Of a stretch of 32,000 nucleotides of DNA, positions 2,796 to 28,592 are shown in pieces. Every line of letters begins with the position of its first letter. Position 1 is the stretch's first letter. The notes below the pieces were generated by a model, which had not been told where the DNA came from, did no database searches, and worked only from the letters and a program-made list of their open reading frames with translations. Made by a program: the position numbers and the translations under genes. The stretch is from assembly GCA_028698185.1 (NCBI GenBank), contig JAQVDW010000001.1, positions 150,001-182,000 of the forward strand, read 5' to 3'. The stretch comes from Erysipelotrichaceae bacterium (GTDB lineage: Bacteria > Bacillota_I > Bacilli_A > Erysipelotrichales > Coprobacillaceae).

Positions 2796-2828
2796 AAAAC
2801 TCAACCCCGACTGTCATTCAGGGTTGAG
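2796..2828 (-). terminator. Rho-independent terminator ending the SipW operon
   Basis: An 8-bp stem CTCAACCC/GGGTTGAG (2800-2807 and 2821-2828) is followed by TTTT on the minus strand. It overlaps the sipW stop codon. Confidence 0.6.
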
Positions 2829-3315
2829 TAGGCATTTTTTCTTGGTCTTTCCGGTACATATCTGCCAGGTAGCTAAGCAGTATCATCAAAGCCACCACGG
2901 ATCCCAGGATGATCTTGCCATTGAAACTGATTGCGAACACCGCCACATATCCCAGGTATGGGATTGTGAACATTGGCACCCCGACAATATTGTCATATGC
3001 CACCTTGGAACCATCGGCAGTATTGTTGGCATCGCCCTTGGTCGTGTAGAGCATCGCCTGCTGGTCCACCTCTATCACTCGGTGGGTTACCAGAGCTGAA
3101 CTGGATATCTGGAAGGTGATGGGATCGCCAACTTCTATCGTATCGAAATTCTTGTTTACGAAAACCAGACTACCCACATGGTAGGTTGGCTCCATCGAGC
3201 CCGACAGCACCACATAAGGGCTGATTCCGACGATTCTAGGAACATACAGCAATGCCATGAACGCAACTACAATGACTATGATTGCATTGGTTAAGTAATG
3301 GATTAGTTTTACCAT
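2818..3315 (-). CDS. sipW: Signal peptidase I, SipW (ER/archaeal) type
   Basis: The protein has an N-terminal TM segment followed by LSGSMEPTYHVGSLVFV...VTHRV...TKGDANNTADG and a C-terminal TM segment. This is the S26B SipW-like pattern. The ATG at 3315 shares 1 nt with the upstream gene's TGA stop, which suggests translational coupling. The track's extra M is a TTG codon. Confidence 0.85.
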   Translation of the reverse strand: MVKLIHYLTNAIIVIVVAFMALLYVPRIVGISPYVVLSGSMEPTYHVGSLVFVNKNFDTIEVGDPITFQISSSALVTHRVIEVDQQAMLYTTKGDANNTADGSKVAYDNIVGVPMFTIPYLGYVAVFAISFNGKIILGSVVALMILLSYLADMYRKDQEKMPTQP

Positions 3316-4190
3316 CAACGGTTACCACGTTTTTTCTTGAATACAAGCAACCAGAGCACGGTCGCTGCCGCCAACGCAGCTGCAACTGCAGCCGCTGTGA
3401 TTGTGGTTGTATTCCAGAAGCCCGGTGTCAATGGCACATCATCGTCATCGATTATTATTCCACCATCGTCATCGATTATTATTCCACCATCGTCATCGGT
3501 TCCGGTCCCGTCATCATCGGTTGTTGTCCCATCATCGGTTGTTGTCCCATCATCGGTTGTTGTCCCATCATCATCGGTTGTTGTTCCACCACCGGGAGTA
3601 ACAACAGTGATTTGATTTCCAGTGCCCGGTACAACAACTACTGAAGTTGTCACACCACCGGAACTTGAACCACCACCCCCTGACGTGCTAGTAAGGGTCG
3701 AGGTGTAATGGAAGCTGATTTGAACACCATCCTGGCTTATTGTTGCGGTTTTAACCGCGGCATCGACTGCGTAATCCTGGATTTCCAAGGCCAGTACGCT
3801 TACCGGAGCATTAAGATTGGTTGTCTTGACAACCGACGTTGCCAGAGGTTTGTCATTTTCATCAAGATAGTTTATCTGGTATGTTACCGAATCGATAATC
3901 TTGCGGTACTGTGCGACAAAGGTGTCTTCCCTGGTCACTGTTTCAGGCACATCAAGGTAAAACCCGGTAAAGAAATAACCTTCGTTCACATCGATGGCCG
4001 CCTGGATCAGATCCGGATCCAAAGTTGTCCCATATTCCAGATTGAGAACAACCCGGTCCTGGGAAGCGATGCTTCCCTGACTACCGGTCTTGAACGTTAT
4101 ATCGTAACTACGCAATGCATTGGCTGGCAACAGGGTAAAGAACATCATCACGACGATGCCAATCATCACTTTCAATGATCTACTTTTCAT
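3315..4190 (-). CDS. Surface adhesin-like protein (P3) with, in order, a signal peptide, a Listeria-Bacteroides-type repeat, a MucBP-like domain, a Thr/Asp/Gly-rich repeat stalk and a C-terminal TM anchor with a basic tail
   Basis: Supporting motifs are YDITFKTGSQGSI...GYFFTGFY...TFVAQY (List-Bact repeat pattern) and VTYQINYLDENDKPL...ISFHY (MucBP-like). The stalk carries (DDGTTT)n and (DDDGGIII)2 repeats. The tail is PLTPGFWNTTTITAAAVAAALAAATVLWLLVFKKKRGNR. I prefer the ATG at 4190, which follows RBS AAGGGGTG and overlaps the upstream stop by 11 nt. The track's start at 4199 is a GTG. Confidence 0.6.
   Translation of the reverse strand: MKSRSLKVMIGIVVMMFFTLLPANALRSYDITFKTGSQGSIASQDRVVLNLEYGTTLDPDLIQAAIDVNEGYFFTGFYLDVPETVTREDTFVAQYRKIIDSVTYQINYLDENDKPLATSVVKTTNLNAPVSVLALEIQDYAVDAAVKTATISQDGVQISFHYTSTLTSTSGGGGSSSGGVTTSVVVVPGTGNQITVVTPGGGTTTDDDGTTTDDGTTTDDGTTTDDDGTGTDDDGGIIIDDDGGIIIDDDDVPLTPGFWNTTTITAAAVAAALAAATVLWLLVFKKKRGNR
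3441..3590. repeat. In-frame tandem DNA repeats inside the P3 stalk
   Basis: A 24-bp unit atcgtcatcgattattattccacc occurs twice exactly (3441-3464 and 3465-3488) plus a partial third copy. An 18-bp unit catcatcggttgttgtcc occurs three times exactly (3512-3565), and a fourth copy carries a 3-nt insertion. Confidence 0.9.
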
Positions 4191-4806
4191 GTTTACCACC
4201 CCTTTTGTATAGTATCAGCACTAATCCCGCTGCCACGATCAAGCCACCATAGACAAGCGGTGAAACCGATTCGTCGCCGGTTTTGACAATCTTTGGCAAA
4301 GGCTGCTCGACTGAGAATATGAAATTGACTACCCCGGTTTGCCCTTGATATTCGTTGTTGGCCGAATCCCCGTCCAGTGAAAGGGTGACATTGATTGTCT
4401 TTGATGCGCCGGCATTCAAAGTCCCCAACAGGATGTTGTTGTCATTGGTCAGAAACTGCAACCCGATGGTCACTTCATCATTTCCGACTTCGGTTTCAAA
4501 AAACGGTGTTGTCCCATCGGCGATGGTGAATGTGTACACCGCATCCCCGTCACCTTTGTTTGCGATATTGTCGAGAATCTCGCTTGACATATAGAAACGC
4601 ATCTGTCCGCCACTGCCATTTACCAGATTGAAAGTGACTGTTCTTGATTCACCTGGAAGCATGTTTTCGAAATCCGGGGCATTACCGTCAAGCATTATGA
4701 ATCTGTTGGCATCACCTTGATAGGTGATCACATCCGCTGCAGCCACATTGTTCATTGACAGAAAAGCTACAAGAGTGATGGCCAAACCAATTATCAGTTT
4801 TTTCAT
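4180..4806 (-). CDS. Secreted cell-surface protein (P2) with TasA/camelysin-like beta-sandwich motifs and an LPXTG-like C-terminal sorting signal
   Basis: The signal peptide ends VAA/AD. Motifs MLPGESRTVTFNLVNGSG and NEYQGQTGVVNFIFSVEQ resemble TasA-family strands. The C-terminus is PLPKIVKTGDESVSPLVYGGLIVAAGLVLILYKRGGKHEK. The ATG at 4806 has better spacing from AGAGGG than the ATG at 4812. Confidence 0.5.
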   Translation of the reverse strand: MKKLIIGLAITLVAFLSMNNVAAADVITYQGDANRFIMLDGNAPDFENMLPGESRTVTFNLVNGSGGQMRFYMSSEILDNIANKGDGDAVYTFTIADGTTPFFETEVGNDEVTIGLQFLTNDNNILLGTLNAGASKTINVTLSLDGDSANNEYQGQTGVVNFIFSVEQPLPKIVKTGDESVSPLVYGGLIVAAGLVLILYKRGGKHEK

Positions 4807-4821
4807 TTTCATCCCTCTTTT

Positions 4822-5466
4822 CTACAATCCGATTGAAACAATGTTATCATCGGCGTCAAATTCAACATCAACGCCCCACTCAGCCTTGAAAGAATCCTTG
4901 GCGTCAAAGGTCTGAACACCATAACCAAAGAACTCGAGATGGACGATCTTGTCAGCGTAAAGATTGTTGTTTTGGGTCACATCCAGATATGTGTACGAAT
5001 CGATGACCGTTGCATACTCCCCTGGATCAAGTGGTCTGGTGTAGTACGCATAGGTGACTTCGGAATACTCATCACCTTCGAAAACAAGCCAGCCGTTCGC
5101 TACAGTGAATTGGATTTGGGCAGGATCGAGGTAATTTGGGTCATTCTGATCGGTTGTGTTTTTGGTCCCGTCTTCATCGGCCCAGTAGCGGTAAATCGTC
5201 ACCCTGACGTAGGCTGTCGTATTTTCGGTGTTTTTGATCGCCAGTCCGCCATCGATGACGTCACCCGGCATTCCATACACTTCACTTTCCAAGAAATTGT
5301 CAGTTATCGTGCTACCGTCACCATTGACAAAGTCTATGCCAAGATATGGGGTGTAGATAGCCTTCTGGGTTTCAAAACTGCTTTGAATGACACTGTAAGT
5401 GCCATGAACGCTAAAACCAACTACTCCTAGTATGAATATCATTCCTATTATTATCTTCTTGTTCAT
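4822..5466 (-). CDS. TasA/camelysin-family secreted protein (P1), first gene of the SipW operon
   Basis: An N-terminal hydrophobic signal is followed by GTYSVIQSSFETQ. The body has MPGDVIDGGLAIKNTENTTAYVRV and a C-terminal FFGYGVQT motif shared with the other paralogues. The ATG at 5466 follows RBS AGAGGTGA. The track's start at 5475 is a GTG. Confidence 0.6.
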   Translation of the reverse strand: MNKKIIIGMIFILGVVGFSVHGTYSVIQSSFETQKAIYTPYLGIDFVNGDGSTITDNFLESEVYGMPGDVIDGGLAIKNTENTTAYVRVTIYRYWADEDGTKNTTDQNDPNYLDPAQIQFTVANGWLVFEGDEYSEVTYAYYTRPLDPGEYATVIDSYTYLDVTQNNNLYADKIVHLEFFGYGVQTFDAKDSFKAEWGVDVEFDADDNIVSIGL

Positions 5467-5490: not shown

Positions 5491-5523
5491 ATTTTAACTT
5501 GAGCCAGTCACATGTCAGTCACA
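5491..5523 (-). promoter_or_regulatory. Candidate activator-dependent promoter A with 11-bp-periodic direct repeats plus a -10
   Basis: The minus strand reads TGTGAC-tgaca-TGTGAC-tggctcaagt-TAAAAT. On the plus strand, gtcaca lies at 5507-5512 and 5518-5523, and the -10 at 5491-5496. No -35 hexamer is present. Sites at 11596-11628 and 24824-24856 have identical architecture. Confidence 0.7.
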
Positions 5524-5564: not shown

Positions 5565-5593
5565 TTTATAAAAACCTGGAAATCTTGTATAAT
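5565..5593 (+). promoter_or_regulatory. Putative sigma-A promoter of the plus-strand transglutaminase / type IV filament-like operon
   Basis: TTTATA (5565-5570), a 17-nt spacer and TATAAT (5588-5593) lie about 75 nt upstream of the ATG at 5667. Confidence 0.45.
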
Positions 5594-5666
5594 TACCATA
5601 TGTGAGCAAACCGCAATTGAAACTCCGATTTTGGAGCTTTGCTCAACGACAAGAGGTGATATCCAG

Positions 5667-6587
5667 ATGAAATTCAAATCCCTGATCATCGCAGCCATGC
5701 TTTTAAGCGGATGTGGTACCAAAACCCAGACAACATCCCCTTTGAATCTCGCTCCCTCCTCCAATAAAGCTACCTTGAAAAGCGAGCCGGTTTTCTATCT
5801 TGCCAGCTTCAATGAAGGAAAAACCCAAGGCAACGAAGCGGTGGAAATCGACCTGACCAATGTCGTCAAAGGTTATTTTGGAGTGAAATACAATGGAACC
5901 AACGACAGGCCCAAACTCCAGCTTACACTGCCTTCAGGGGCCATCTACACATACAACCTGACCGGAAAAATCGACTTTTTCAATCTGGTCGAGACATCGG
6001 GCACGTATGTGATCACGGTCTATGAAAATATCGAAGGCAACCGCTATGGCAAGATATTCAAGACCAGCTTTGAAGTTGAGCAGGAAAACGGATTCAATGC
6101 CTTCTTGTACAACAACCAGTATGTCAATTTCGACAAGGACACCCAGGTTGCATATGTTGCCAGCGAGCTGGTCACAAATGCGTCTTCATCCCTTGAAAAG
6201 ATCCAGCTGATCTTCGATTACATTATTACCAACTACGATTATGACTATCAAAAGGCTAAAATTGTCGCTTACGATTATATTCCGGATCTAAACTCTATCT
6301 ACCAATCCAAAAAAGGGATATGCTTCGATTACGCGGCATTGCTTGTTGCGATGCTGCGCACCCAGGCCATCCCGACCCGGCTGGAATTCGGATATGTCAA
6401 AGACACATATCATGCCTGGGTCAGTGTCTATACGGATCAGACCGGTTGGATCGACAATTTCATCTATTTTGAAAACGAGAACTGGCAAATCATGGATCCC
6501 ACCTTCATCTCGCAAGACCCAGGCAACAAGAAAATCCAGGAATTCACGACCGACAGCGAAAATTATGAGCTGAAATACATCTTTTAA
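5667..6587 (+). CDS. Lipoprotein with a transglutaminase-like (Cys-His-Asp) core domain
   Basis: The ATG at 5667 follows RBS AAGAGGTGA. The signal is MKFKSLIIAAMLLSGC, with lipobox LSGC. The catalytic-core pattern is KKGICFDYAALLVAMLRTQAIPTRLEFGYV...YHAWVSVY...WQIMDPT. I judge the track's upstream extension from 5487 to be non-coding. Confidence 0.8.
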   Translation: MKFKSLIIAAMLLSGCGTKTQTTSPLNLAPSSNKATLKSEPVFYLASFNEGKTQGNEAVEIDLTNVVKGYFGVKYNGTNDRPKLQLTLPSGAIYTYNLTGKIDFFNLVETSGTYVITVYENIEGNRYGKIFKTSFEVEQENGFNAFLYNNQYVNFDKDTQVAYVASELVTNASSSLEKIQLIFDYIITNYDYDYQKAKIVAYDYIPDLNSIYQSKKGICFDYAALLVAMLRTQAIPTRLEFGYVKDTYHAWVSVYTDQTGWIDNFIYFENENWQIMDPTFISQDPGNKKIQEFTTDSENYELKYIF

Positions 6588-6598
6588 TGGAGGCGGCA

Positions 6599-7531
6599 AT
6601 GAGAAACGATTACGATCTAATCATCAATTTTTCAAAGCAGATGTATCTGATTTCCACCAGTGGCCAAAGTTTCTTGGCGGGACTTAGATTGCTTGAAACC
6701 AACACCACGCAAATGCGGATGAAAAATCTTTTGACCCAGGTTATCGCCCAGCTCGAACAAAATGACATCATTTTTGCCCTGGAAAGCACCGGGCTGTTTG
6801 ACGAGCTTTATCTTGACCTGATCAAAGCCGGCCTGCATTCTGGAAATCTTGACGAAGTATTTCTTCACCTGACAAACTATTACAAGCAACTTGATCAAAG
6901 CAACAGGAAATTAAGAAGGCTGTTGAATTTCCCCATCGGCATGAGCCTGGTCATGATGGTGATCATGATTATACTGGTGACCAGGATTCTCCCGGTATTC
7001 AGCGACCTTTATGCAGGCATGGGAGCCCAGCTGACCGGTGTTGCCAGGATAAGCCTTCAGCTGGGATACTTCATCAATGATTACCTCGTTTACTTCATCA
7101 TCATTGTGCTATCTGGTGTGCTTTTGTTGCTGGGAATGATCCGGCAAGACAAGGTTGGGATCTTCAAAAAGGCAAAGGCTCTCAATCGGGCATCCAATGA
7201 GCTTTTTGCCGTTTCCACCCTGGTAAAGGCCGGAGTTTCTTTCGATCAGGCAGCTGGAATAGCCAACATGTCCAAATCGGGCGTGATCGAGGCGTTTTCT
7301 TCCCGGCTCGAGCCTCTTGAGCTGTCCTTGTTGGAAATGAGCATCCAGAACGGAACCCATGAAAAGGTTATCGAGATGCTTTTCGACGAGTATCGCCAGA
7401 AGGCCAATACAAGGATGGATGAATCATTGGCCAAGTTCGAACTATACTTTGGCACCGGTTTTGTCGTCATTGTAGCCATCGTCATGCTGTCATTGATCTT
7501 GCCGCTTTTCGCGATTCTTTCAGAATTATGA
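6599..7531 (+). CDS. Type II secretion / type IV pilus platform protein (GspF/PilC/ComGB family)
   Basis: There are two T2SSF-like repeats (LIKAGLHSGNLDEVF; LVKAGVSFDQAAG) separated by TM segments (LPVFSDLYAGMGAQL). It is about 310 aa, close to ComGB in size. The ATG at 6599 follows a GGAGG. Confidence 0.8.
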   Translation: MRNDYDLIINFSKQMYLISTSGQSFLAGLRLLETNTTQMRMKNLLTQVIAQLEQNDIIFALESTGLFDELYLDLIKAGLHSGNLDEVFLHLTNYYKQLDQSNRKLRRLLNFPIGMSLVMMVIMIILVTRILPVFSDLYAGMGAQLTGVARISLQLGYFINDYLVYFIIIVLSGVLLLLGMIRQDKVGIFKKAKALNRASNELFAVSTLVKAGVSFDQAAGIANMSKSGVIEAFSSRLEPLELSLLEMSIQNGTHEKVIEMLFDEYRQKANTRMDESLAKFELYFGTGFVVIVAIVMLSLILPLFAILSEL

Positions 7532-7812
7532 AGATAGTAAGATTAGCGCTGGTTATTGTTGCATTGGCCCTGGGAATCATCTTTATCAATCAGTTCCACC
7601 AGACCAGCCAGGAAAACGCTTTGCATGCACTCGAGCAGTCGATCAATGACAAAATACTGCTTTGTTACATCAATGAGGGGCGTTATCCCGAATCACTGGG
7701 ATATCTTGAGGAAAATTACGGCCTAAGCTTCGATAAGACAAGATATCAGGTTTTTTTGATCCCGATTGGAGAAAACATCATACCTGACTTGACGGTATTC
7801 GCCTATGAATAA
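7528..7812 (+). CDS. Small pilin/pseudopilin-like protein (94 aa) without a canonical prepilin cleavage motif
   Basis: The start overlaps the upstream stop (ATGA). An N-terminal hydrophobic helix MKIVRLALVIVALALGIIFI continues into a GspG/ComGC-like YINEGRYPESLGYL segment. There is no G(-1) and no E(+5). Confidence 0.45.
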   Translation: MKIVRLALVIVALALGIIFINQFHQTSQENALHALEQSINDKILLCYINEGRYPESLGYLEENYGLSFDKTRYQVFLIPIGENIIPDLTVFAYE

Positions 7813-8221
7813 AAGCAACTTGTTTTCATACCTCATTACCGGCATCTTCATCTTCACCCTTAGCGCCATCTGCATCCTTATGCTAAACATCACAAACAAG
7901 ACAGCCATAGCCCAAGATGCCCTTGTAGATGAGCAGTTTGTGATCAGCTTCATAAACGAAAAGATCAAGCGGGCCAAATCGGTTGAAATAAAAAAAGATG
8001 ATACCTCGGACATTCTTGCACTCGAAGATGGTTCTTCATATGTGACCTACCTGTACAACAACGATGGTTACCTATGCGAGCTTTATGTGCCGGCCGGCCG
8101 GGAATTCGATATGGAATATGGGGACCGGATATGTTCCATGGAAAAACTGGACATGGATCTCATTGATGGCCTGCTTGTAATCAACGAAAACTACTACTTG
8201 AACCTGGAGGGCAAGCCGTGA
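7805..8221 (+). CDS. Small bitopic protein (138 aa), ComGF-like minor pseudopilin candidate
   Basis: The start overlaps the upstream stop by 8 nt. It has an N-terminal TM segment (LFSYLITGIFIFTLSAICILML). Its size and layout resemble ComGF-family proteins. This is based on similarity of pattern only. Confidence 0.35.
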   Translation: MNKSNLFSYLITGIFIFTLSAICILMLNITNKTAIAQDALVDEQFVISFINEKIKRAKSVEIKKDDTSDILALEDGSSYVTYLYNNDGYLCELYVPAGREFDMEYGDRICSMEKLDMDLIDGLLVINENYYLNLEGKP

Positions 8222-8586
8222 AAGATAAGATAAGCATGCTCGAGCTATGTGTCAACCTTATGGTTTTCGCAATCGCCCTGGCGCTGGTCATCCAGATCAT
8301 GATGAAAACAACTCTCATCAATTACCACAACACGATCAAGGCCAAAGCAATCATCCAGCTCAACAGTATTGTCGCAATCCTGCAAGAACATCAAGGCGAT
8401 CTTGAAGGTTACTACCAAACCAGTGATTCGCTAATCCTTTTTGACAGCAACAATATAAACACCACGGACGATTATTATTATTGCGTAAAAGTTGAAAACA
8501 ATTTCCCGATATTCCATCTTGATGTTTACGATAAATATGACAACCTGATCATCGCGACTGACTACGAGGTGGCTTATGAAGATTAG
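8218..8586 (+). CDS. Small pilin-like protein (122 aa) with a degenerate class III signal
   Basis: The GTG start overlaps the upstream TGA (GTGA). The N-terminus MKDK/ISMLELCVNLMVFAIALALV places Glu at +5 relative to a putative cleavage site, but Lys rather than Gly sits at -1. Confidence 0.4.
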   Translation: MKDKISMLELCVNLMVFAIALALVIQIMMKTTLINYHNTIKAKAIIQLNSIVAILQEHQGDLEGYYQTSDSLILFDSNNINTTDDYYYCVKVENNFPIFHLDVYDKYDNLIIATDYEVAYED

Positions 8587-8962
8587 AATCGGGCTGACAA
8601 GCCTTTTCAATATCATCATCATCCTGGTATTGATCACATTGACATTCAACTCATACATCCAGACCAAGGCCAGCCAAACCCTGATTGACCAGAACCTCGC
8701 CCACAACCTCACCTACCTTGAGGCCAGGTCGATAATCAACCGTTTCATCAACGACAGCCGGGAAATTCCGTTGACGAATCTTCAGGACCAATACGATTTT
8801 CAAATGGAAGCAAATGTGATAACTTTCCAGGAGGTCATTGACTATGGCCAGACAGTCACATTGGTTTACGATTATAATGCCAAGCAAATCATCTCCTTGC
8901 AGGTCCAAAACAATTCGGATTACCAGCTAGATGACTTGGCTCCAGTCTACACAGGAGAATGA
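8576..8962 (+). CDS. Small pilin-like protein (128 aa), ComGG-like candidate
   Basis: The N-terminus MKIRIG/LTSLFNIIIILVLITL has Gly at -1 but no Glu at +5, as in ComGG/GspK-type minor pilins. It overlaps the upstream gene by 11 nt. Confidence 0.4.
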   Translation: MKIRIGLTSLFNIIIILVLITLTFNSYIQTKASQTLIDQNLAHNLTYLEARSIINRFINDSREIPLTNLQDQYDFQMEANVITFQEVIDYGQTVTLVYDYNAKQIISLQVQNNSDYQLDDLAPVYTGE

Positions 8963-8963
8963 T

Positions 8964-10016
8964 ATGGAAATTACTTCAATTCTGCACCGGGCAATAACCA
9001 TGCAGGCTTCGGATATCTTTATCGAAGCCAACATCCCAGTCAAGTTCAAGAAAGACAATCAACTGTGCCCCTTGAACAATGATGTACTCACCACCGAAGA
9101 CACCAAACAGCTTATCAGCCAGATTTACGAAATCGCCAAGCGCGATGTCGATATCCTCTTCAATGACGGCGATGACGATTTCGCCTTCTCGATAGCCCAC
9201 CTTTCCCGCTTCCGGGTGAGCATGTTCAAACAGCGGGGCTCACTGGCTTGCGTGATCCGGATCATCGCCTTCAAGCTGCCGGATTTCCAGGAATTGAACA
9301 TTCCCGAACAGCTGATTGATCTAGGCGACCAGACCAACGGGCTGATCCTTTTCACCGGTCCTTCAGGAAGCGGCAAATCCACGACCCTGGCATGCATCAT
9401 CGACTACATCAACCACAAATATGCCCGTCATGTCATCACTCTTGAAGACCCTATCGAGTATCTTCATGTCCACAACAAATCGATAATCACCCAGCGGGAG
9501 ATCGGCAATGACACCAACTGTTATCTGACCGCCCTGAGGGCCAGCCTGCGCCAGTGTCCCGATGTCATCCTGCTTGGGGAGATGCGCGACCATGAAACTA
9601 TCGAGACTGCGATAACCGCAAGCGAGACCGGCCACCTGGTGTTTTCCACACTCCATACAATCGGCGCAAGCAATACAATCAACCGGATCATCGATGCCTT
9701 TCCAGCCAATGAGCAGCCACAGATAGCGATGATGCTCTCACTGACCCTCAATGCGGTCGTGTCGCAGCATCTCGTTCCCGATATTTCCGGTAAGCTCATT
9801 CCGGTGTTTGAAATCATGATTGTCAATCCGGCCATCCGCAACCTGATAAGAGAAAAAAAGATCCACCAGATCGACTCGATCATTGAAAGCGACCGGCAAA
9901 ACATGGTGACCCTTGACAACAGTCTGCTGCAACTTTACCAGGACCGTATCATATCCAGGGAAACAGTGATCAAGTACTGCAAGAACAACCAATATATCAC
10001 CCAGAAATTGGGATAG
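8964..10016 (+). CDS. pilT: PilT/PilU-family type IV pilus (retraction-type) hexameric ATPase
   Basis: The ATG at 8964 follows AGGAGA and lies 1 nt after the upstream stop. Motifs read by eye are ASDIFIE, Walker A GPSGSGKSTTL, ITLEDPIEY, PDVILLGEMRDHETIETAITASETGHLVFSTLHT, INRIIDAFPANEQPQI and NPAIRNLIREKKIHQI. This set is diagnostic of PilT rather than PilB/GspE/ComGA. Confidence 0.85.
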   Translation: MEITSILHRAITMQASDIFIEANIPVKFKKDNQLCPLNNDVLTTEDTKQLISQIYEIAKRDVDILFNDGDDDFAFSIAHLSRFRVSMFKQRGSLACVIRIIAFKLPDFQELNIPEQLIDLGDQTNGLILFTGPSGSGKSTTLACIIDYINHKYARHVITLEDPIEYLHVHNKSIITQREIGNDTNCYLTALRASLRQCPDVILLGEMRDHETIETAITASETGHLVFSTLHTIGASNTINRIIDAFPANEQPQIAMMLSLTLNAVVSQHLVPDISGKLIPVFEIMIVNPAIRNLIREKKIHQIDSIIESDRQNMVTLDNSLLQLYQDRIISRETVIKYCKNNQYITQKLG

Positions 10017-10074: not shown

Positions 10075-10725
10075 TTAAGAATATTGTTCGATTGCCGCTG
10101 CAGGCCAACCAGTGATCATGCCACCTGGGTTGGTTGTAGGTGTCACATTAGCTGCTTGAATCGCTTCAGCCTTTACAGTTATTATGTAATCATCGTTTGT
10201 GCTGCTGTTGGTCAAGCTGCTTGGGAATGATACTGTAGAGAATACAGTTACGTTTGCGCCAGCTGCCAAAGAGTTCTTATAATACACATATGCACTTTCT
10301 GAACCATCAGGATTACTTGTCAAACCACCGATAAACCAATCACTTGTGTTGATATTTAAATAACTCAACAAAGTAGCTTCAGAGATGACCCCATCGCCTC
10401 CGGTATCTATCGTCTTAAGAGTAACCAGTGCGCGGACATAACAATCTTCAGATCCAGCCATTACTGTAATTACAGGCTGTTTGGAATAGACATCGCCAGG
10501 CATTACATCATTGTAATCGTAACCGTCATCAGTAGCCGTACCAGCCTTAACGCCAGGTCCTGCAACTGAAGTTTCTCTTAAATCGATGTCAACATGTCCC
10601 ATTGTGATTGTGTTGGTTTCAGTTTTGGTGTAGTCAGTGAAGTATGCCAGCGTGAATCCGACAGTGGCACTGAGTGCAATCGCTGCTGTAGTGACAATTG
10701 CAGCAATTTTCTTGTTCAATTTCAT
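10075..10725 (-). CDS. TasA/camelysin-family protein (P4) with a SipW-dependent-type signal peptide
   Basis: The signal GFTLAYFTDYTKTETNTITMGHVDIDL matches the TasA-type signal (compare B. subtilis TasA GGGTWAAFNDIKSKDATFASGTLDL). The body has MPGDVYSKQPVITVMAGSEDCYVRALV and a C-terminal KAEAIQAANV. Confidence 0.8.
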   Translation of the reverse strand: MKLNKKIAAIVTTAAIALSATVGFTLAYFTDYTKTETNTITMGHVDIDLRETSVAGPGVKAGTATDDGYDYNDVMPGDVYSKQPVITVMAGSEDCYVRALVTLKTIDTGGDGVISEATLLSYLNINTSDWFIGGLTSNPDGSESAYVYYKNSLAAGANVTVFSTVSFPSSLTNSSTNDDYIITVKAEAIQAANVTPTTNPGGMITGWPAAAIEQYS

Positions 10726-10780
10726 AATATTTTCTCCTTTTTTAATTATGTTTAGTGATCGTTGAATTAATCAATTAATA

Positions 10781-11464
10781 TCAAGGCGCTGGGTATCCGG
10801 CAAGGGTTTTCAAAGCTGTTGCCTTGTCAGTTCCAGCTGGCAATGATATTTGAACACCATAAGCAGTTGCATCTATTTCCAATTTTGGTAAGTTACCTGA
10901 ACCATCAGGAACCAATCCGAAGGAAATCAACACTTGGGTGAACAATGGTGATGTCGTTGCTTGAGCTGAATCGGCTACAAGATAAGAATTGAAAACAAAG
11001 AAATCATTGTTTGCAGGTACTGTCGATTCATTAGACCATTCGTCTACTGCCGCTCCAGTGTCAAATACGATGCTGTCATCTCGAAGATATGTCGCAAATG
11101 TTGCATAAGGAACTACAACATCGTTAACCTTGTAGGTCAACTTCATTGCCACGTAGGTGTTGTCGCTTCCGGTCATGGCTTTGATGGTCGGATCTTTAGG
11201 CACAGTATCTCCTGGCAAGTACTCATTGGCTATGTTGTAACCAAGGGTTACATCATCTGATTTAGGTGATGTACCGCCCGGCCAAGCTTCTGAAAAATCG
11301 TATCCATCCCATGCCGGTTCTCTTAACTCAATGTCGATTCCCCGTGATGATGTAAAAACGTTTGTTGCCGATGATGTGGTATCAGTCAAAAGAGCCATAG
11401 TCAATGACAGGGTAAGACCAAAAACCAATGCAAAAATCATTAAATACTTTGTGAATTTCTTCAT
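10781..11464 (-). CDS. TasA/camelysin-family protein (P5) with a SipW-dependent-type signal peptide
   Basis: Supporting motifs are MALLTDTTSSATNVFTSSRGIDIELREPAWDGYDF, LPGDTVPKDPTIKAMTGSDNTYVAMKL and C-terminal ATAYGVQ. It is a clear paralogue of P6 (23417-24118). Confidence 0.8.
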   Translation of the reverse strand: MKKFTKYLMIFALVFGLTLSLTMALLTDTTSSATNVFTSSRGIDIELREPAWDGYDFSEAWPGGTSPKSDDVTLGYNIANEYLPGDTVPKDPTIKAMTGSDNTYVAMKLTYKVNDVVVPYATFATYLRDDSIVFDTGAAVDEWSNESTVPANNDFFVFNSYLVADSAQATTSPLFTQVLISFGLVPDGSGNLPKLEIDATAYGVQISLPAGTDKATALKTLAGYPAP

Positions 11465-11595: not shown

Positions 11596-11628
11596 ATAAT
11601 ATTATTTACCTGTCACACTGAAGTCACA
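11596..11628 (-). promoter_or_regulatory. Candidate activator-dependent promoter B, with the same architecture as promoter A
   Basis: The minus strand reads TGTGAC-ttcag-TGTGAC-aggtaaataa-TATTAT. On the plus strand, gtcaca lies at 11612-11617 and 11623-11628, and the -10 at 11596-11601. It sits immediately downstream of the regulator's terminator. Confidence 0.7.
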
Positions 11629-11643
11629 AGATTGAAAAACCAC

Positions 11644-11673
11644 AAAAAAACTTGGCTCAGTTAGACCCAAGTT
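11644..11673 (-). terminator. Rho-independent terminator of the regulator gene
   Basis: The stem ACTTGG/CCAAGT, which includes the last codons of the CDS, is followed by T7 on the minus strand. Confidence 0.6.
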
Positions 11674-12856
11674 TTTGACTGTTGCAAGTTATGTAGATGT
11701 CGTTTTTTTTCAGACCGCGGTAAAAATATTTCTCGATTCTCTCGATAACCAAGGTTGCATCGTCAATATTGCACATGCTAAGAAGACAGCTGTACTGATT
11801 GGGCGAGACCTTGGAAACCGAATCGCTGTTGCGCAGTGCATCAATCAAAACATCTTCAACACGGTCCATTCCCCTATTCAAGGTATCCCGGAAGATCTTG
11901 GAATGGCCGTCAAACGGTTTCATCACATTAACCGAGACCAGAAGCAAAGTCGAATCGAACGAGTGTCTTTGCGCCAGCCGAAGCTCAAGATTGCATAGGT
12001 TTTTAAATGCACCGTAATCACAGACAAGGACGTTCTTTGATTGCAGTGGAACAATGTCCTGCTGGACCTTGTCAATCGATTCATTGGCCGGCAGAAACCG
12101 GCTCAAGATCTGCTCATAAGTCTTGATCAGCTTATCACTCGGCAAAACCCCAAGCTCATGATTTAGAATATATTTGGCTGTCTCATATTTGACCCGGGCA
12201 AGTTCAAACTCGTTATTTTGACCAAGGGCTAGGATTTCATAACGGTAAAAATCCTCTTCCGTATTGTCAAGCGACAAAGCGTTGTTAGAATAGAAATAGA
12301 GGTCATCGTAAAACTTCTGGTTGTAAAGCACCTTCAGAAAATCTTTTGTCATTTTCAAAAAAACATTGTGATAATACATCGAATTCTGCATTATTAACGA
12401 ATCGTAATCAAAATGGGCAAACAGACGGTCCTGATAAATTTCTGTCGCTTTTTTATAATGGTCGATCTTGGTCAGATCATCCATTTTGTCGTCAACTGAA
12501 CTTATCAGTGCATAAAACTCCTCAAAATCGACGATCAGCTTGACCTGTGAATTCCAGAAATATGTTCCCGACCCGGTCATTATCAGTTCCTGATCAGGCC
12601 ACACCTGCTTCATGACTGTCCGCAAACGGTAGACCAGGTTTTTAAGTGCCCCAATCGGATTGGAACTCTCATCATCTTCCCAAAGGTAATCGCACAAATC
12701 CGATAACGGGATGATGGTATTATGATGGGTAATAAAATAAAAAAGCAGTTTGGCCAGGCGCTTCGACTTGAGCATTGTCAGGTTGAGCTGGCCGACGTCG
12801 TTACTGATCTGGAATTCACCAAAGGCATAGACGTTCAAAACACAAGAATATTCCAT
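11657..12856 (-). CDS. SARP-like transcriptional activator (OmpR-type winged helix plus BTAD/TPR-like domain) with a C-terminal degenerate GGDEF-like domain
   Basis: The N-terminus VYAFGEFQISNDVGQLNL...KRLAKLLFYFITHHNTIIPLSDLCDYLWEDDESSNPIGALKNLVYRLRTVM fits the SARP/EmbR-type wHTH pattern. The middle region is helical and BTAD-like (ARVKYETAKYILNHELGVLPSDKLIKTYEQIL). The C-terminus LRNSDSVSKVSPNQYSCLLSMCNIDDATLVIERIEKYF aligns to R-x-x-D-(5 aa)-GGDEF-vvll...A..iAErIr of GGDEF domains. Confidence 0.65.
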   Translation of the reverse strand: MEYSCVLNVYAFGEFQISNDVGQLNLTMLKSKRLAKLLFYFITHHNTIIPLSDLCDYLWEDDESSNPIGALKNLVYRLRTVMKQVWPDQELIMTGSGTYFWNSQVKLIVDFEEFYALISSVDDKMDDLTKIDHYKKATEIYQDRLFAHFDYDSLIMQNSMYYHNVFLKMTKDFLKVLYNQKFYDDLYFYSNNALSLDNTEEDFYRYEILALGQNNEFELARVKYETAKYILNHELGVLPSDKLIKTYEQILSRFLPANESIDKVQQDIVPLQSKNVLVCDYGAFKNLCNLELRLAQRHSFDSTLLLVSVNVMKPFDGHSKIFRDTLNRGMDRVEDVLIDALRNSDSVSKVSPNQYSCLLSMCNIDDATLVIERIEKYFYRGLKKNDIYITCNSQKLGSN

Positions 12857-13059
12857 AAAATCACTCCCCCCAAATATTCTTAAAATTTAAAAATATTATA
12901 TATTGCTACAGGTTTGATGTAGTTAAAAACAATGGTTGATCTTACATATATATTTATGTTACTACTAAATGTCCAATAAATCAACCTAATCAATTCAACC
13001 CAGTCAATTAATTATCAGTAATTACTTTTAAAAAAACACCAGACCAATTGATGTTTGAT

Positions 13060-15288
13060 CTAGTGGATAATCCTTTTGACATCGTATATGCCGATGATTT
13101 TTTCAAGGTTGACAAAGGCGATCTGCAGGGAATCGTTGTCTTCGACTGCGAGCTTGAGCTGAATAAAAGCCTCCGCATCCTGGGTTTCGGCGTTTATTTT
13201 CAAGATGGAAATCTTGCTTTGTCCCAGTACGTTGATAATCTCATTGAGAAGATTGCCCCGGTCAAGACCGCGGATTTCGATATCGACGTCAAACTTGTGG
13301 TTGAAAGTCTGCGCATTGTCCCAGTACACAGGAATCAGCCGCTTTTTGATCTCCGGATTCTGGACATTGGGACAGCTGGCCCGGTGAACCTTTATCCCCT
13401 GCCCTTTGGACACGAAACCGACGATATCATCGCCAGGTATCGGGTTGCAGCATCTTGAGAGTGTGATCTTGATTCCGTCGATTCCCTCAACGACAACCCC
13501 GGTTTTGGAAACGTTGGCTTTGGCCTGATTCGCCGCCAGGTTGCTGTTGCGCTGGAGCATCTTCGAAATGTTGTCGATCAGGCCGCCGCGTTTTGGATTT
13601 ATCTTGTCGATGACCGACATCGGCAGCAGCGTCTTCTTGCCGATGAAAAACAGGATGTCTTCGAAGCTCTTGGCACCGAAGGCCCCAAGATAAGTCTTGT
13701 ATGTCTCCTCATTGAGATATTTGGTCTCGTCGAGTTTTCTCTTGCGAACCTCGTCCTTGAAGATTTTCCGGCCCGCTTCCACCATTTCCTTGCGGCTTTG
13801 GGCTTCGACCTTGGTAATGTACTGGCGGATCTTGTTCCTTGCACCGGTGGTCCGGACGAACTTCAACCAGTCGCGGTTGGGTGTGGCGTTCTTGCTTGTC
13901 TTGATTTCGACCACATCGCCGGTTTTGAGCTTTGTGTTAATCGGCACCATGACATTGTTGACAACGGCACCCACACAGGTATTTCCGACTTCCGAGTGGA
14001 TCCGGTAGGCAAAGTCGATTGGCGTCGACCCGTTGGGAAGCTCGATGATTTTCCCCTTGGGGCTCAAGACATAGACATTCGCCTCGAAGATGTCCCGCTT
14101 CAAACTGTCGTAGAATTCCTTGGCATCACGGTCCTTGATATCGTCGGACAGAGTGATGAAATCGCGGAGCCATTGGAGCTTTTCACCGATCTCCTGCTGT
14201 TCCTTTTGCGACGAATAGCCCCGGTTTTCCTTGTAGCGCCAGTGGGCCGCAACCCCGAGTTCCGCCAGTTCGTCCATCAGTTCGGTCCTTATCTGGATTT
14301 CATAAGTATGGCCGTCATCACCGATGATCGATGTATGCAATGACTGGTACATGTTTGGCTTGGGCATCGCGATGTAATCCTTGAACCGGCCGGGAATCGG
14401 GCGATAATGTTCGTGAATCAGACCGAGAATTGTATAGCATGACTGCTTGTTGTCGGTGATGACCCGCAAGGCATAGAGATCATAAATCTCATCGAATCGC
14501 TTGTTCTTGATGAACATCTTCTTGTAGATGCTGTAGATCGACTTTGGCCGGCCGACAATCCGGTATGTGATCTTATGGGTGTCAAGGAGATCGGATACAT
14601 CATGGATCATCTTGTCGATATAGCCCCTGCGCTGTTCCTCTTTTTCCTTGAGCAACAAGACGATATCATTGTAGGCTATCGGATCGAGATAAGACAGCGA
14701 AAGGTTTTCTAATTCCGTCTTGATGTCCGAAAGCCCGAGCCTATGGGCAATCGGGGTGTAGACCTCAAGTGTCTCGCGGGCGATTTTCTTTTGCTTTTGG
14801 GGCTTCATGAACTGCAGGGTCCTCATATTGTGAAGCCGGTCGGCAAACTTGATCAAAATGACCCGGATGTCGCTGGCCATGGCGATGTAGATCTTGCGGT
14901 GGTTTTCCGCATAAACCTCATCCTCATCCTTGAAATCCATCTTGTTGATCTTGGTGACCCCTTCGACCAGGGTCGTCACCTCGTCACCGAAGCGTTCGAC
15001 CATTTCCGGCCGGGGCACATCGCAGTCTTCCATGACATCATGCAACAAGCCCGCCGCAATCGTCTTAGGACCGGTCTGCAATGTCGCCAAGATGTAGGCG
15101 ACCCAAAGCAAGTGGTTGGTATACGGCTCACCGCTGCGCCGTTTCTGGTCGGCGTGTTTGATCATGATAAATTCATAGGCCCGATTGATCAAATCGAGAT
15201 CTTCCGGGTTGGTAACATAATTTTTTACTACATCAACGATATCCTGGAACGCCACTACTTCATGGGCCCCTTTACCACCTTTAAACAT
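13060..15288 (-). CDS. relA: Bifunctional (p)ppGpp synthetase/hydrolase RelA/SpoT (Rel)
   Basis: The 742-aa ORF has an HD hydrolase domain (HLLWVA...LHDVMED), a synthetase domain (YRSLHT-like SLHTSIIG), and TGS and ACT regions. It follows apt and recJ, as in Bacillus. Confidence 0.95.
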   Translation of the reverse strand: MFKGGKGAHEVVAFQDIVDVVKNYVTNPEDLDLINRAYEFIMIKHADQKRRSGEPYTNHLLWVAYILATLQTGPKTIAAGLLHDVMEDCDVPRPEMVERFGDEVTTLVEGVTKINKMDFKDEDEVYAENHRKIYIAMASDIRVILIKFADRLHNMRTLQFMKPQKQKKIARETLEVYTPIAHRLGLSDIKTELENLSLSYLDPIAYNDIVLLLKEKEEQRRGYIDKMIHDVSDLLDTHKITYRIVGRPKSIYSIYKKMFIKNKRFDEIYDLYALRVITDNKQSCYTILGLIHEHYRPIPGRFKDYIAMPKPNMYQSLHTSIIGDDGHTYEIQIRTELMDELAELGVAAHWRYKENRGYSSQKEQQEIGEKLQWLRDFITLSDDIKDRDAKEFYDSLKRDIFEANVYVLSPKGKIIELPNGSTPIDFAYRIHSEVGNTCVGAVVNNVMVPINTKLKTGDVVEIKTSKNATPNRDWLKFVRTTGARNKIRQYITKVEAQSRKEMVEAGRKIFKDEVRKRKLDETKYLNEETYKTYLGAFGAKSFEDILFFIGKKTLLPMSVIDKINPKRGGLIDNISKMLQRNSNLAANQAKANVSKTGVVVEGIDGIKITLSRCCNPIPGDDIVGFVSKGQGIKVHRASCPNVQNPEIKKRLIPVYWDNAQTFNHKFDVDIEIRGLDRGNLLNEIINVLGQSKISILKINAETQDAEAFIQLKLAVEDNDSLQIAFVNLEKIIGIYDVKRIIH

Positions 15289-17841: not shown

Positions 17842-18093
17842 CTATTTCAAATAGTTATTAATGCTTTTAAATATTTTGTTTACCTTTTCCATAGGTGAAT
17901 TGAGCGATTGCAGCTCGCGCAAAGTTGCGTCAAGATCCTTATTGGTCTTGTCGACAGTATCGGAAAAATCCCTGATTTTCCTCTTGTTTTCGACGCTGGC
18001 CCGGTCGAATCGCAAAATCATGGACGCTCCCAAATATACCAACAACAAAATAGCCAATATCACTACCAAACCTATAATAATATCCGCGACCAC
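17842..18093 (-). CDS. Small membrane-anchored coiled-coil protein (DUF948-like)
   Basis: The GTG start follows RBS GAGGTGA, with a TATAAT upstream. It has one N-terminal TM segment (IIIGLVVILAILLLVYLGA) and then a charged helical region. Confidence 0.4.
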   Translation of the reverse strand: MVADIIIGLVVILAILLLVYLGASMILRFDRASVENKRKIRDFSDTVDKTNKDLDATLRELQSLNSPMEKVNKIFKSINNYLK

Positions 18094-23382: not shown

Positions 23383-23416
23383 ATGTAGCTATTCTCCTTT
23401 CTATGATTTTGAAATC

Positions 23417-24118
23417 CTAATCTTCGATGAATTCAAGCATTGTGGAATCAACATCGCCGATATCCAGGTTTGTCCCCTGAATCGCATATGCATTCACATT
23501 GATTTCAAAATCTTTGAGATTTTCTTCATATATATTGAACTTTACCTTGATTTCGCTAAACAGTGCGTCCGTACCCGATGTGCCATCGGTGGAAAGAAGG
23601 TCCGCAATGTCATCAGCGCCATCAAAAATATAGATCTCATACTTGTTTTCAGGCGGGGTTTCACTGTCGGGAATCTGATGCCAGTTGGAGCTGATCACCA
23701 GATCATCGATCAGGGTGCTGGTTAGTTCCGATTTGTCTACATTTATGTATGTACCGGTCGCATCCTTAAGCAGGAATGAGACTTTCATTGCCACATAACA
23801 GTCTTCACTGCTCTGATCGAGTTGGATCTTTGGATCCTTGACGATTGTGTCACCCGGCATGTAAGTCGTCGCCTTGTTGAAACCCAGATCCGAACTTGTT
23901 GAGTCGTCTTTGGTTCCCAAGCCGTGTTCCCAACCATCATCATCAAAGCTGTATCCATCCCATCCCGGTTCACGCAACAGGATGTCCACTTTTCTAGTCG
24001 AGGTGAATATGTTTTGGGCCGGTCCCGAAGAATCAGCAAGCAGCGCCGTTGACGAGCTGACTGTAAGCAAGATCAGTGAGAAAACCATTCCTGTAAATAT
24101 CATGTGTCTTTTATTCAT
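23417..24118 (-). CDS. TasA/camelysin-family protein (P6) with a SipW-dependent-type signal peptide
   Basis: Supporting motifs are TALLADSSGPAQNIFTSTRKVDILLREPGWDGYSF, MPGDTIVKDPKIQLDQSSEDCYVAMKV and VNAYAIQGTN. It is a paralogue of P5. The ATG at 24118 follows RBS AAGGTGA. The track's start at 24127 is a GTG. Confidence 0.8.
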   Translation of the reverse strand: MNKRHMIFTGMVFSLILLTVSSSTALLADSSGPAQNIFTSTRKVDILLREPGWDGYSFDDDGWEHGLGTKDDSTSSDLGFNKATTYMPGDTIVKDPKIQLDQSSEDCYVAMKVSFLLKDATGTYINVDKSELTSTLIDDLVISSNWHQIPDSETPPENKYEIYIFDGADDIADLLSTDGTSGTDALFSEIKVKFNIYEENLKDFEINVNAYAIQGTNLDIGDVDSTMLEFIED

Positions 24119-24160
24119 TATTATCACCTTACCTCTTTTGCAATATAAGTTGATTGATCA

Positions 24161-24763
24161 TTATAAGCTGACTCCCCAAACCGCCTGAGGCGAGCTTTGA
24201 GTTCCATCTGTCTGGTTGGCAGCGATGCCTTCAACCATGACGTTCATTTCCAGATGTTCATTTGCTCCAAGGCTGTTGGTGTAAGTCACTCCGGTAAACA
24301 GCGGTGTTGTCAGTTCGCCGGCGCTGAGTACTGTCTTGTAATAGTAGTAGTCACCAATCTTTTGCCAGTTGGTAAGATCCAGGTTTTCATAAACAATGGC
24401 CCCATTGATATCGGTTGGAACAATCTCATCGAGTTCGTTTTTCAATACCGGAACTAGTTTCACTCTCACATAAGTATCAACCGTGTTCTGCGGTGATCCG
24501 TCGTCGTAGGTGTCTTTGTTGGCAACCTGCACGGTTTTGGTTGCTGTACCATCAACCAAAGGCAGTGACAGACCTTCACCTTCGACTCCGTTACCATCTT
24601 CATAAAATGTGTCTTCAGCCCCGTTTTCAACGACTGCGACATTGACATATCCTGCATCAAATTTGTTGGTAGCATAGTCGGAGTCATTCAAAAAAGCCAG
24701 TGTAAGCCCTACTCCTGCAACAAATAAAGCTATTATTAGAATCATCCATCTTTTTTTCTTCAT
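24161..24763 (-). CDS. TasA/camelysin-family protein (P7) with a SipW-dependent-type signal peptide
   Basis: The ATG at 24763 follows RBS AAAGGTGG. The signal GLTLAFLNDSDYATNKFDAGYVNV closely mirrors the TasA signal-junction motif. The C-terminus has VMVEGIAANQ. Confidence 0.8.
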   Translation of the reverse strand: MKKKRWMILIIALFVAGVGLTLAFLNDSDYATNKFDAGYVNVAVVENGAEDTFYEDGNGVEGEGLSLPLVDGTATKTVQVANKDTYDDGSPQNTVDTYVRVKLVPVLKNELDEIVPTDINGAIVYENLDLTNWQKIGDYYYYKTVLSAGELTTPLFTGVTYTNSLGANEHLEMNVMVEGIAANQTDGTQSSPQAVWGVSL

Positions 24764-24823: not shown

Positions 24824-24856
24824 ATACTAACCCTTTGATGTCACATAGCAGTCACA
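24824..24856 (-). promoter_or_regulatory. Candidate activator-dependent promoter C, with the same architecture as promoters A and B
   Basis: The minus strand reads TGTGAC-tgcta-TGTGAC-atcaaagggt-TAGTAT. On the plus strand, gtcaca lies at 24840-24845 and 24851-24856, and the -10 at 24824-24829. Confidence 0.7.
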
Positions 24857-28573: not shown

Positions 28574-28592
28574 ACCAACAGAGGTGAAAATT

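Follow-up and report, generated by a model that had tools for sequence, protein, structure and literature searches.

The DNA stretch analysed here (32,000 nucleotides (nt) of an Erysipelotrichaceae bacterium, contig JAQVDW010000001.1 of assembly GCA_028698185.1, positions 150,001 to 182,000; hereafter, the window) contains three operons encoding secreted proteins (A, B and C), a gene for a predicted DNA-binding regulator that we call REG, and a divergent, type-IV-pilus-like secretion operon (T). Each of the three secreted-protein operons is preceded by a 33-nt promoter element (sites A, B and C), in which two direct TGTGAC repeats (the box) stand immediately before a -10 hexamer in the arrangement TGTGAC-N5-TGTGAC-N10-TAnnnT (Table 1). 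An earlier note, made from the letters of this DNA, had drawn attention to these sites and likened them to promoters controlled by SARP-family activators.

The three strings described in the earlier note are all present on the minus strand, each with two exact hexamers in an 11-bp period and a 10-nt gap to the -10. The full pattern occurs exactly three times in the window, always on the minus strand and always 5' of an operon for SipW-type secreted proteins, in agreement with the note's statement that no other tandem occurrence exists. The paired hexamers alone (TGTGAC-N5-TGTGAC) likewise gave three matches, compared to 0.00 expected from 100 dinucleotide-preserving shuffles. Because the single hexamer is not enriched (16 copies found, 16.3 expected), the signal in the window resides in the tandem arrangement. 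Allowing up to two mismatches added three matches (one overlapping site C, one within gene C3 and one on the strand opposite C3), none of them credible. Outside the hexamers and the -10, sites A, B and C have nothing in common.

The note had also described these promoters as lacking a -35 hexamer. This holds for sites B and C but not for site A, where CTGACA (5/6 matches to TTGACA; window 5513-5518, minus strand) lies 16 bp from the -10. This -35-like hexamer is made up of the final base of repeat 1 together with the spacer, and is confined to this lineage and its closest relative (REG 91% identical); it is absent in three other relatives, whose spacer reads tatta or tacta. Terminator-like hairpins lie 5' of site C, after pfk, and a weak hairpin followed by a T run separates the end of REG from site B. 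When the long leaders were scanned for riboswitches with Rfam, the hisS T-box was the sole hit in the window, and seven related loci gave nothing relevant.

Table 1. Coordinates of the promoter sites, genes and related features in the window, followed by features located in other loci (locus:position)
Feature	Position	Strand	Description
Site A promoter	5523-5491	minus	TGTGACtgacaTGTGACtggctcaagtTAAAAT; repeat 1 5518-5523, repeat 2 5507-5512, -10 TAAAAT 5491-5496; precedes A1-A2-A3-sipW; predicted transcription start ~5484, predicted leader ~17 nt
Site B promoter	11628-11596	minus	TGTGACttcagTGTGACaggtaaataaTATTAT; repeat 1 11623-11628, repeat 2 11612-11617, -10 TATTAT 11596-11601; precedes B1-B2; predicted leader ~125 nt
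Site C promoter	24856-24824	minus	TGTGACtgctaTGTGACatcaaagggtTAGTAT; repeat 1 24851-24856, repeat 2 24840-24845, -10 TAGTAT 24824-24829; precedes C1-C2-C3; predicted leader ~55 nt
REG	11657-12856	minus	399 aa; between sites B and C, ending 29 bp before site B
REG residues 1-255			winged helix and BTAD (SARP module)
REG residues 275-399	11657-12085	minus	degenerate GGDEF domain
A1	4822-5466	minus	214-aa secreted beta-sandwich protein; first gene after site A; homologous to B and C proteins
A2	4180-4812	minus	LPXTG-like C-terminal anchor
A3	3315-4199	minus	weak MucBP match; long Thr/Asp-rich repeat (GTTTDD..); C-terminal membrane anchor
sipW	2818-3318	minus	SipW-type signal peptidase; TIGR02228 103 bits (cutoff 51.85)
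Rest of operon A (A2, A3, sipW)	2818-4812	minus	
T-box leader upstream of hisS	2545-2740	minus	120.6 bits; marks downstream end of operon A
Operon B	10075-11464	minus	paralogous secreted proteins B1 (10781-11464) and B2 (10075-10725)
Operon C	20803-24763	minus	C1 24161-24763, C2 23417-24127, C3 20803-23382
C3	20803-23382	minus	859-aa von Willebrand A protein
T operon	5565-10016	plus	divergent; own promoter TTTATA-17-TATAAT at 5565-5593
T operon genes	5667-10016	plus	transglutaminase-like 5667-6587, T2SS-F platform, four small proteins (one DUF4860), T2SS-E ATPase 8931-10016
Small protein family (60-73 aa)	L008:9466, L010:7791, L015:9487, L043:11621, L053:11579 and 11 others		
~145-aa protein	L009:11186-11620, L012:9495-9923, L022:11203-11634, L038:11213-11635		
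Tandem promoter units	L012:18795/18900, L024:18859/18960, L028:18862/18963, L032:17073/17208/17342, L005:13169/13279		
Tandem promoter units	L081:6619/6904		285 bp apart; first before a small ORF, second before an A1-type gene

A secreted-protein operon does lie downstream of each site, as the note had claimed, and its description of the first genes as TasA-like could be upheld in part. B1, B2, C1 and C2 are paralogues (C2 is 34% identical to B1). The SipW-dependent signal peptide model TIGR04088 (cutoff 19 bits) recognized B2 (26.1 bits) and C1 (19.7 bits), with A1 and B1 falling below threshold. A1 matched no family; alignment with hhalign of an A1-family profile (27 members) to a B/C-family profile (20 members) gave a probability of 99% and E = 4.7e-18, which places all three first genes in one superfamily. 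The link to TasA itself is remote and was demonstrated only partly: the Peptidase_M73 (TasA/camelysin) match in B2 is limited to its N-terminal 52 residues, only 4 of the 20 B/C family members reach that family, and C1 scored 16.9 bits against the BsaA family, far under the cutoff of 60. Searches of the PDB with the A1-family and B/C-family profiles returned weak matches only, the A1 profile hitting the archaeal bundling-pilus protein AbpX (E = 0.03), and a model of A1 of moderate quality (pLDDT 68) had no significant Foldseek neighbour in the PDB beyond generic beta-sandwiches such as the p53 core. The label appears reasonable but remote. The LPXTG-like anchor of A2 and the membrane anchor of A3 suggest that the fibre is attached to the cell surface.

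Site A adjoins the T operon, with its T2SS-E and T2SS-F genes, just as the note had reported. The -10 region of the T promoter is conserved in five genomes. A fixed geometry between this promoter and the TGTGAC box was considered and rejected, as the distance separating them differs between taxa.

We compared the window with syntenic loci of metagenome-assembled genomes from the Coprobacillaceae, whose REG homologues are 91, 80, 71 and 69% identical to that of the window. The site A box is exact in all four of these relatives, while its 5-nt spacer (tgaca, tatta or tacta), the 10-nt gap and the flanks vary. Orthologues of site B read TGTGAC or TGTTAC, N5, TGTGAC, N10, then TATTAT or TACAAT, within surrounding DNA that cannot be aligned. 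In the relative with the 80% identical REG (L005), a group II intron encoding reverse transcriptase and maturase domains (11678-13072) has come to lie between REG and site B, and the box still adjoins B1 despite this separation. The site C box is exact in the two relatives examined (L084 and L085), the -10 being TAAGAT in L085 and the upstream DNA having diverged. As a separate observation, the closest relative carries a DDE transposase of an insertion sequence (L002:2999-4585) between a nitroreductase gene and the counterpart of window 17842-18093; the window has no such insertion.

The survey of more distant relatives rested on loci retrieved by REG homology alone, not by the box: 80 loci from other genomes, with REG 27-91% identical to the window's. 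Searching with the REG alignment, with each species represented by a single genome, gave 78 loci, in which identity to the window's REG was 27-34%. The box was present in 54 of the 80 loci, and the gut clostridia and related bacteria that have it next to the SARP-like regulator number more than 50 species. The retrieved loci place the family in Clostridia and Erysipelotrichales. Those of the Lachnospiraceae came from Blautia, Lactonifactor, Lachnobacterium and Agathobacter, those of the Erysipelotrichaceae and Coprobacillaceae from Longicatena, Thomasclavelia and Massilimicrobiota, and other sources were Eubacterium limosum, E. callanderi, E. barkeri, E. aggregans, Clostridium paraputrificum and Oscillospiraceae.

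Statistics of the box were calculated over 1.53 Mb of non-redundant sequence, made up of the 80 REG loci, the two site C loci and the window. This sequence contains 135 boxes with no more than one mismatch, 86 of them exact compared to 0.18 expected. The REG strand carries 127 of the 135, and TAnnnT follows repeat 2 at exactly 10 nt in 119. All but one of 125 boxes are intergenic, even though open reading frames (ORFs) cover 86% of the DNA. The resulting consensus is TGTGACY(G)nnR-TGTGACT-N9-TAtAaT, repeat 2 being better kept (exact in 115/130) than repeat 1 (101/130). An A-rich patch lies upstream, at about -50 to -48, and elsewhere in the flanks the information content is approximately 0.1 bit. 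T (65%) and then A (63%) are enriched 6-7 nt past the -10, a pattern that fits a fixed start site. Among these boxes we found neither a third repeat in register, upstream or downstream, nor repeats spaced by 22 bp. Some loci contain two or three complete units of box plus -10 in tandem, typically 100-135 bp apart, and most of these tandem units lie 5' of the same B/C-type gene.

These data bear on two of the explanations that could be offered for the sites. Given that the operons are paralogous, the element might be a coincidence or a leftover of the duplication that produced all three. Against this stand the expectation of zero matches, the lack of anything shared between the sites beyond hexamers and -10, and the conservation of the box across families whose flanks carry so little information. 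On the basis of these statistics and phylogenetic footprints we excluded chance and duplication, the probability of which we judge negligible. The hexamers could also belong to a different class of promoter, since TGAC resembles part of TTGACA, as in the -35 of an alternative sigma factor, and TGTGA is a CRP half-site, as in half of a CRP/FNR-type site (TGTGA-N6-TCACA). However, a -35 in repeat 1 (GTGACY) would stand 20 bp from the -10 and one in repeat 2 only 9 bp from it, both spacings being outside the range of any sigma factor, and no sigma factor gene is encoded in the window cluster. Exact direct pairs of TGTGAC in the 1.53 Mb number 86 at a gap of 5 and 5 in total at all other gaps from 0 to 30, whereas inverted pairs (TGTGAC/GTCACA) at gaps 0-30 number zero; the inverted CRP/FNR arrangement is ruled out by the direct orientation of the repeats. 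Spacing and orientation counts thus exclude both the alternative sigma factor and the CRP site, and we regard either as very unlikely.

Counting the -10 as -12 to -7, with the start 7 nt after it, the two 11-bp repeats (TGTGACYnnnn, twice) span approximately -39 to -18, with a centre near -28.5, such that they take up the position of the -35. Matches to a -35 are depleted: 76% of sites have two or fewer of six matches to TTGACA at a 16-18 bp spacer, compared to 53% of random positions, and 5/6 is reached at site A alone, in the window and in its closest relative. Each promoter would combine a good -10 with no usable -35. An arrangement of this kind might also suit a repressor, with REG bound to the box and occluding the core promoter between -39 and -18. 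In favour of this, the box overlaps the core promoter, the -10 hexamers are near consensus, and TG stands one base before the -10 in 27 of 130 sites, so that some could fire without a -35. Yet -35 matches fall below background, which suits promoters dependent on an activator; every SARP module that has been solved and characterised activates from this same position (PMC10936776); and the position of the REG gene within a box-driven operon, described below, fits positive feedback. We consider repression by REG improbable.

The earlier note had stated that a SARP-like regulator is encoded in this cluster, and REG answers to that description in both profile and fold. Its BTAD (PF03704; 37.8 bits, cutoff 22.1; residues 109-251) directly follows the winged helix. 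A REG family profile built from 27 sequences matched the SARP region of AfsR in the PDB (E = 5e-9), aligning to AfsR residues 52-264 with E-values from 5e-9 to 1e-7, and separately matched GGDEF domains (E = 5e-7). The AlphaFold model of REG (mean pLDDT 86) comprises three domains with a disordered linker at residues 256-273, and its best PDB neighbours by Foldseek were AfsR in a transcription initiation complex (8k60, TM score 0.71-0.74) and EmbR, followed by many GGDEF domains. REG combines this SARP module with a further, C-terminal domain. The most conserved block of the protein is GALKNLVYRLR, in the helix at residues 67-85, which is expected to be the recognition helix. No Response_reg match was found in REG, whose winged helix begins at about residue 5. 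The family is large, with 1,557 representatives at 50% identity (E <= 1e-30); among the best 150 of these, nearly all are full-length, at approximately 400 aa.

The C-terminal domain, which the earlier note does not mention, is a degenerate GGDEF domain. The model superimposes on the GGDEF domain 6khu with a TM score of 0.72, and a profile of this domain matches DgcR with E = 3.9e-7. Its motif LRxGDxxxRxSxNQ[YF]xxLLP aligns to FRKSDIISRFGGEEFVILFP of DgcR and VRSSDYVFRYGGDEFIIVL of DosC, with LRxGDxxxR placed against FRKSDIISR, VRSSDYVFR and IRQSDSAGR. The GGDEF active-site motif has been lost (SPNQY in the window's REG, SxNQ[FY] across the family). The RxxD I-site (R342-D345), five residues upstream of the former active-site motif, is retained and is invariant in the 27 sequences. 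A stand-alone version of this GGDEF-like domain (a 133-aa ORF, L039:4968) stands behind a TGTGAC box in one Lachnospiraceae genome assembled from a metagenome.

Across loci, the first genes downstream of the box encode A1-like proteins, B/C-like proteins with SipW-type signal peptides, giant secreted proteins, SipW, a small protein family and REG itself. The giant secreted proteins (900-2,000 aa) are encoded immediately after REG, and some are related to C3. The canonical layout consists of the divergent T operon, a box followed by A1-A2-A3-REG and a gene for a protein of approximately 145 aa, a box followed by a giant protein and, further on, sipW, and a box followed by B/C genes. From this layout, REG is predicted to be transcribed from a box promoter in most species. 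In the window this layout has been rearranged, and REG stands by itself, uncoupled from the A operon and with no box 5' of it; a search of the window upstream of REG with up to two mismatches found none. Two protein families met in these clusters had no Pfam match and are absent from the window. The members of the first (60-73 aa; ..TFxxxxKxxQNxTWQGxxxWxxxxxxxxFRSxLELxxLxDSA) are encoded directly behind a TGTGAC box in 16 loci. The ~145-aa protein (..NSxRICID..GxPQ..RSF..SxWQG..), encoded behind REG in most canonical clusters, has a WQG motif in common with them.

The composition of these clusters also addresses the possibility that the box is bound by some other OmpR/PhoB-family response regulator encoded elsewhere, such as a BsaR-like partner of a sensor kinase of the kind known from C. 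perfringens, and that REG does something else. The geometry is equally that of a Pho box, and 26 REG loci have no box nearby. Nevertheless, genes for a two-component system are missing from both the window cluster and the canonical clusters, the clusters have no DNA-binding protein in common other than REG, and the box accompanies 54 of 80 loci that were found by REG homology alone, usually flanking or driving REG. We view a separate response regulator as a poor candidate, with a low probability.

In a reverse test, metagenome contigs were scanned for the box with a TATAAT -10, which returned at least 120 stretches, many of them from the same species in different samples. Among the matches listed, the first downstream gene was of the A1 family in 23 cases, REG in 4, the small protein in 1 and a long secreted protein in 27. 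The remaining matches listed were lost at a contig edge (30), had an ORF cut by the contig end (5) or preceded something else (32), a group in which there are short doubtful ORFs as well as a site that recurs in front of a tRNA. The association of the box with recognisable cluster genes is strong, not exclusive. In the recurrent site (L098:132-420, identical in L096, L099, L111 and L139), which has no cluster gene visible around it, a perfect box and its TATAAT are separated from a tRNA gene by about 300 nt that contain no convincing ORF; the site could be an orphan or serve a non-coding target.

Together, these results lead us to propose that the sites are activator-dependent sigma-A promoters, at which REG binds the repeats and activates the three operons for SipW-processed fibres, a reading to which we assign a probability of roughly 0.7. 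REG would occupy the repeats as a head-to-tail dimer, with one protomer per repeat bound through its OmpR-type winged helix. It would recruit RNA polymerase in the manner of AfsR by 'sigma adaptation', contacting the core enzyme and taking the place of the -35 in the interaction with sigma region 4. The products of the three operons would together form a TasA/BsaA-type fibre processed by SipW, along with surface anchors and a von Willebrand A protein, the adjoining type-IV-pilus-like secretion operon presumably remaining under its own ordinary promoter. In most relatives, where REG lies inside a box-driven A1-A2-A3-REG operon, activation would create positive feedback. More speculatively, the degenerate GGDEF domain could serve as the input: because RxxD is invariant in an otherwise degenerate domain, it most plausibly binds cyclic di-GMP (c-di-GMP) and thereby controls dimerisation.

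Several points weigh against this proposal. The 3' repeat ends 10 bp from the -10 if taken to be a hexamer and 9 bp from it if taken to be a heptamer, compared to the canonical SARP value of 8 bp. The window's REG scores 25.0 bits against Trans_reg_C, just below the Pfam cutoff of 26.2 (its homologue P0006 reaches 36.5 bits). Of the 80 loci with REG homologues, 26 have no box within 10 kb despite possessing the same recognition-helix motif, a comparison that is biased in that this motif served as the search seed. In favour of the proposal, the boxless loci mostly lack the fibre genes, which occur in 1 of these 26 and in 28 of the 54 box-bearing loci. A variant operator was sought in the boxless loci as any exact hexamer-N5-hexamer-N10-TAnnnT, and this candidate was abandoned when only two unrelated singletons emerged. 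Some boxes among the metagenome matches listed have no recognisable cluster gene nearby. Site A, with its 5/6 -35-like hexamer, may have basal, REG-independent activity in this lineage. Finally, the analysis shows the promoter architecture, its conservation, its link to REG and the fold of REG, whereas binding by REG, activation and the start sites are inferred.

In published SARP targets the direct repeats recur at intervals of 11 or 22 bp and the 3' repeat stands 8 bp from the -10; the afs box of afsS extends from -40 to -19, centred at -29.5 (PMC10936776). The box described here, at about -39 to -18, has essentially this placement, with direct 11-bp repeats immediately 5' of a sigma-A-type -10, so that the SARP-type promoter geometry put forward in the earlier note stands. 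In addition to its DNA contacts, the AfsR dimer holds sigma region 4, the beta flap, the beta' zinc-binding domain and the alpha C-terminal domain (PMC10936776). Like REG, the SARPs AfsR, ActII-ORF4 and DnrI have an N-terminal OmpR-type winged helix followed by a BTAD, with AfsR the best structural match (TM score 0.74); their targets have the same two 11-bp direct repeats on one helix face over the position of a poor -35, and they bind as a side-by-side dimer with one protomer per repeat, as we propose for REG. They differ in serving actinomycete secondary metabolism, whereas REG belongs to a Firmicute host (Coprobacillaceae, and widely Clostridia) and its predicted targets are operons for secreted fibres and adhesins. 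Further differences are the TGTGAC core of the REG repeats and the 9-10 bp between the 3' repeat and the -10, -10 hexamers that are near consensus at REG-linked sites and poor in Streptomyces, and the extra domain, a degenerate GGDEF in REG compared to NOD/TPR in AfsR and FHA in EmbR.

PhoB offers a second parallel, with the same DNA-binding fold and the same tandem 11-bp direct repeats replacing the -35. The core of the PhoB consensus, TGTCA, is similar to the TGTGA found here. Unlike PhoB, REG has no receiver domain, hence no phosphorylation input, and carries a BTAD and a GGDEF-like domain instead. In E. coli, the Pho box lies 10 bp upstream of a TAN3T -10 (PMC1906773), the same distance as in the box described here. 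With respect to gene content, the closest known system is the C. perfringens matrix operon sipW-bsaA-bsaB-bsaC(VWA), export from which involves type-IV-pilus genes (bioRxiv 10.1101/2024.11.04.621531). The gene set is the same (SipW peptidase, TasA-like subunits, von Willebrand A protein and an association with T2SS-E/F-type genes), but in the window these genes are split into three box-driven operons, for which we propose one-component control by a protein of SARP-GGDEF-like composition; C. perfringens BsaR/BsaS represents a case with a different response regulator (PMC7395162).

As for the C-terminal domain of REG, it likewise has the GGDEF fold, a lost active site and an invariant RxxD I-site when set beside receptors of the PelD/PopA type. 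PelD and PopA are degenerate GGDEF domains that act as c-di-GMP receptors. Unlike these, the REG domain, a putative nucleotide binder, is fused to a SARP DNA-binding module.

SARP activators have been regarded as a speciality of actinomycetes, tied to antibiotic production. Neither the REG family nor a SARP-GGDEF fusion nor the TGTGAC box was described in the literature searched, which covered part of the journals. What is new is the phylum, the operator, the proposed input domain and the class of target genes; the SARP-like logic of activation is known. If our proposal is correct, the same promoter logic is widely used in gut Firmicutes, with a sharply defined operator, for genes encoding secreted fibres, adhesins and matrix components. 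The 33-nt signature would then let sequence by itself reveal this regulon in hundreds of gut species that have not been cultured, and provide a handle on how commensal clostridia turn on their surface fibres, with the GGDEF-like domain offering a testable link to c-di-GMP. Cultured carriers include Eubacterium limosum, E. callanderi, Clostridium paraputrificum, Lactonifactor longoviformis, Longicatena caecimuris and Lachnobacterium bovis. A broader and distinctly more tentative idea, which we think possible but doubtful, is that REG typifies a large family of one-component activators in Firmicutes, in which a degenerate GGDEF domain, sensing c-di-GMP by way of its invariant RxxD site, controls a SARP module and whose regulon, marked by TGTGAC-N5-TGTGAC-N10-TAnnnT, builds SipW-dependent fibres and giant adhesins in dominant gut commensals (Blautia, Lachnospiraceae, Eubacterium, Erysipelotrichaceae). 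Were this true, the 'sessile' second messenger would be wired directly to sigma adaptation at -35-less promoters.

Outside the three operons, an ORF at 28584-29840 of the window (plus strand, 418 aa) could be assigned to no family with confidence, its TPR/HEAT-like and cold-shock-domain matches being weak; both relatives examined have a conserved counterpart of 415 aa.

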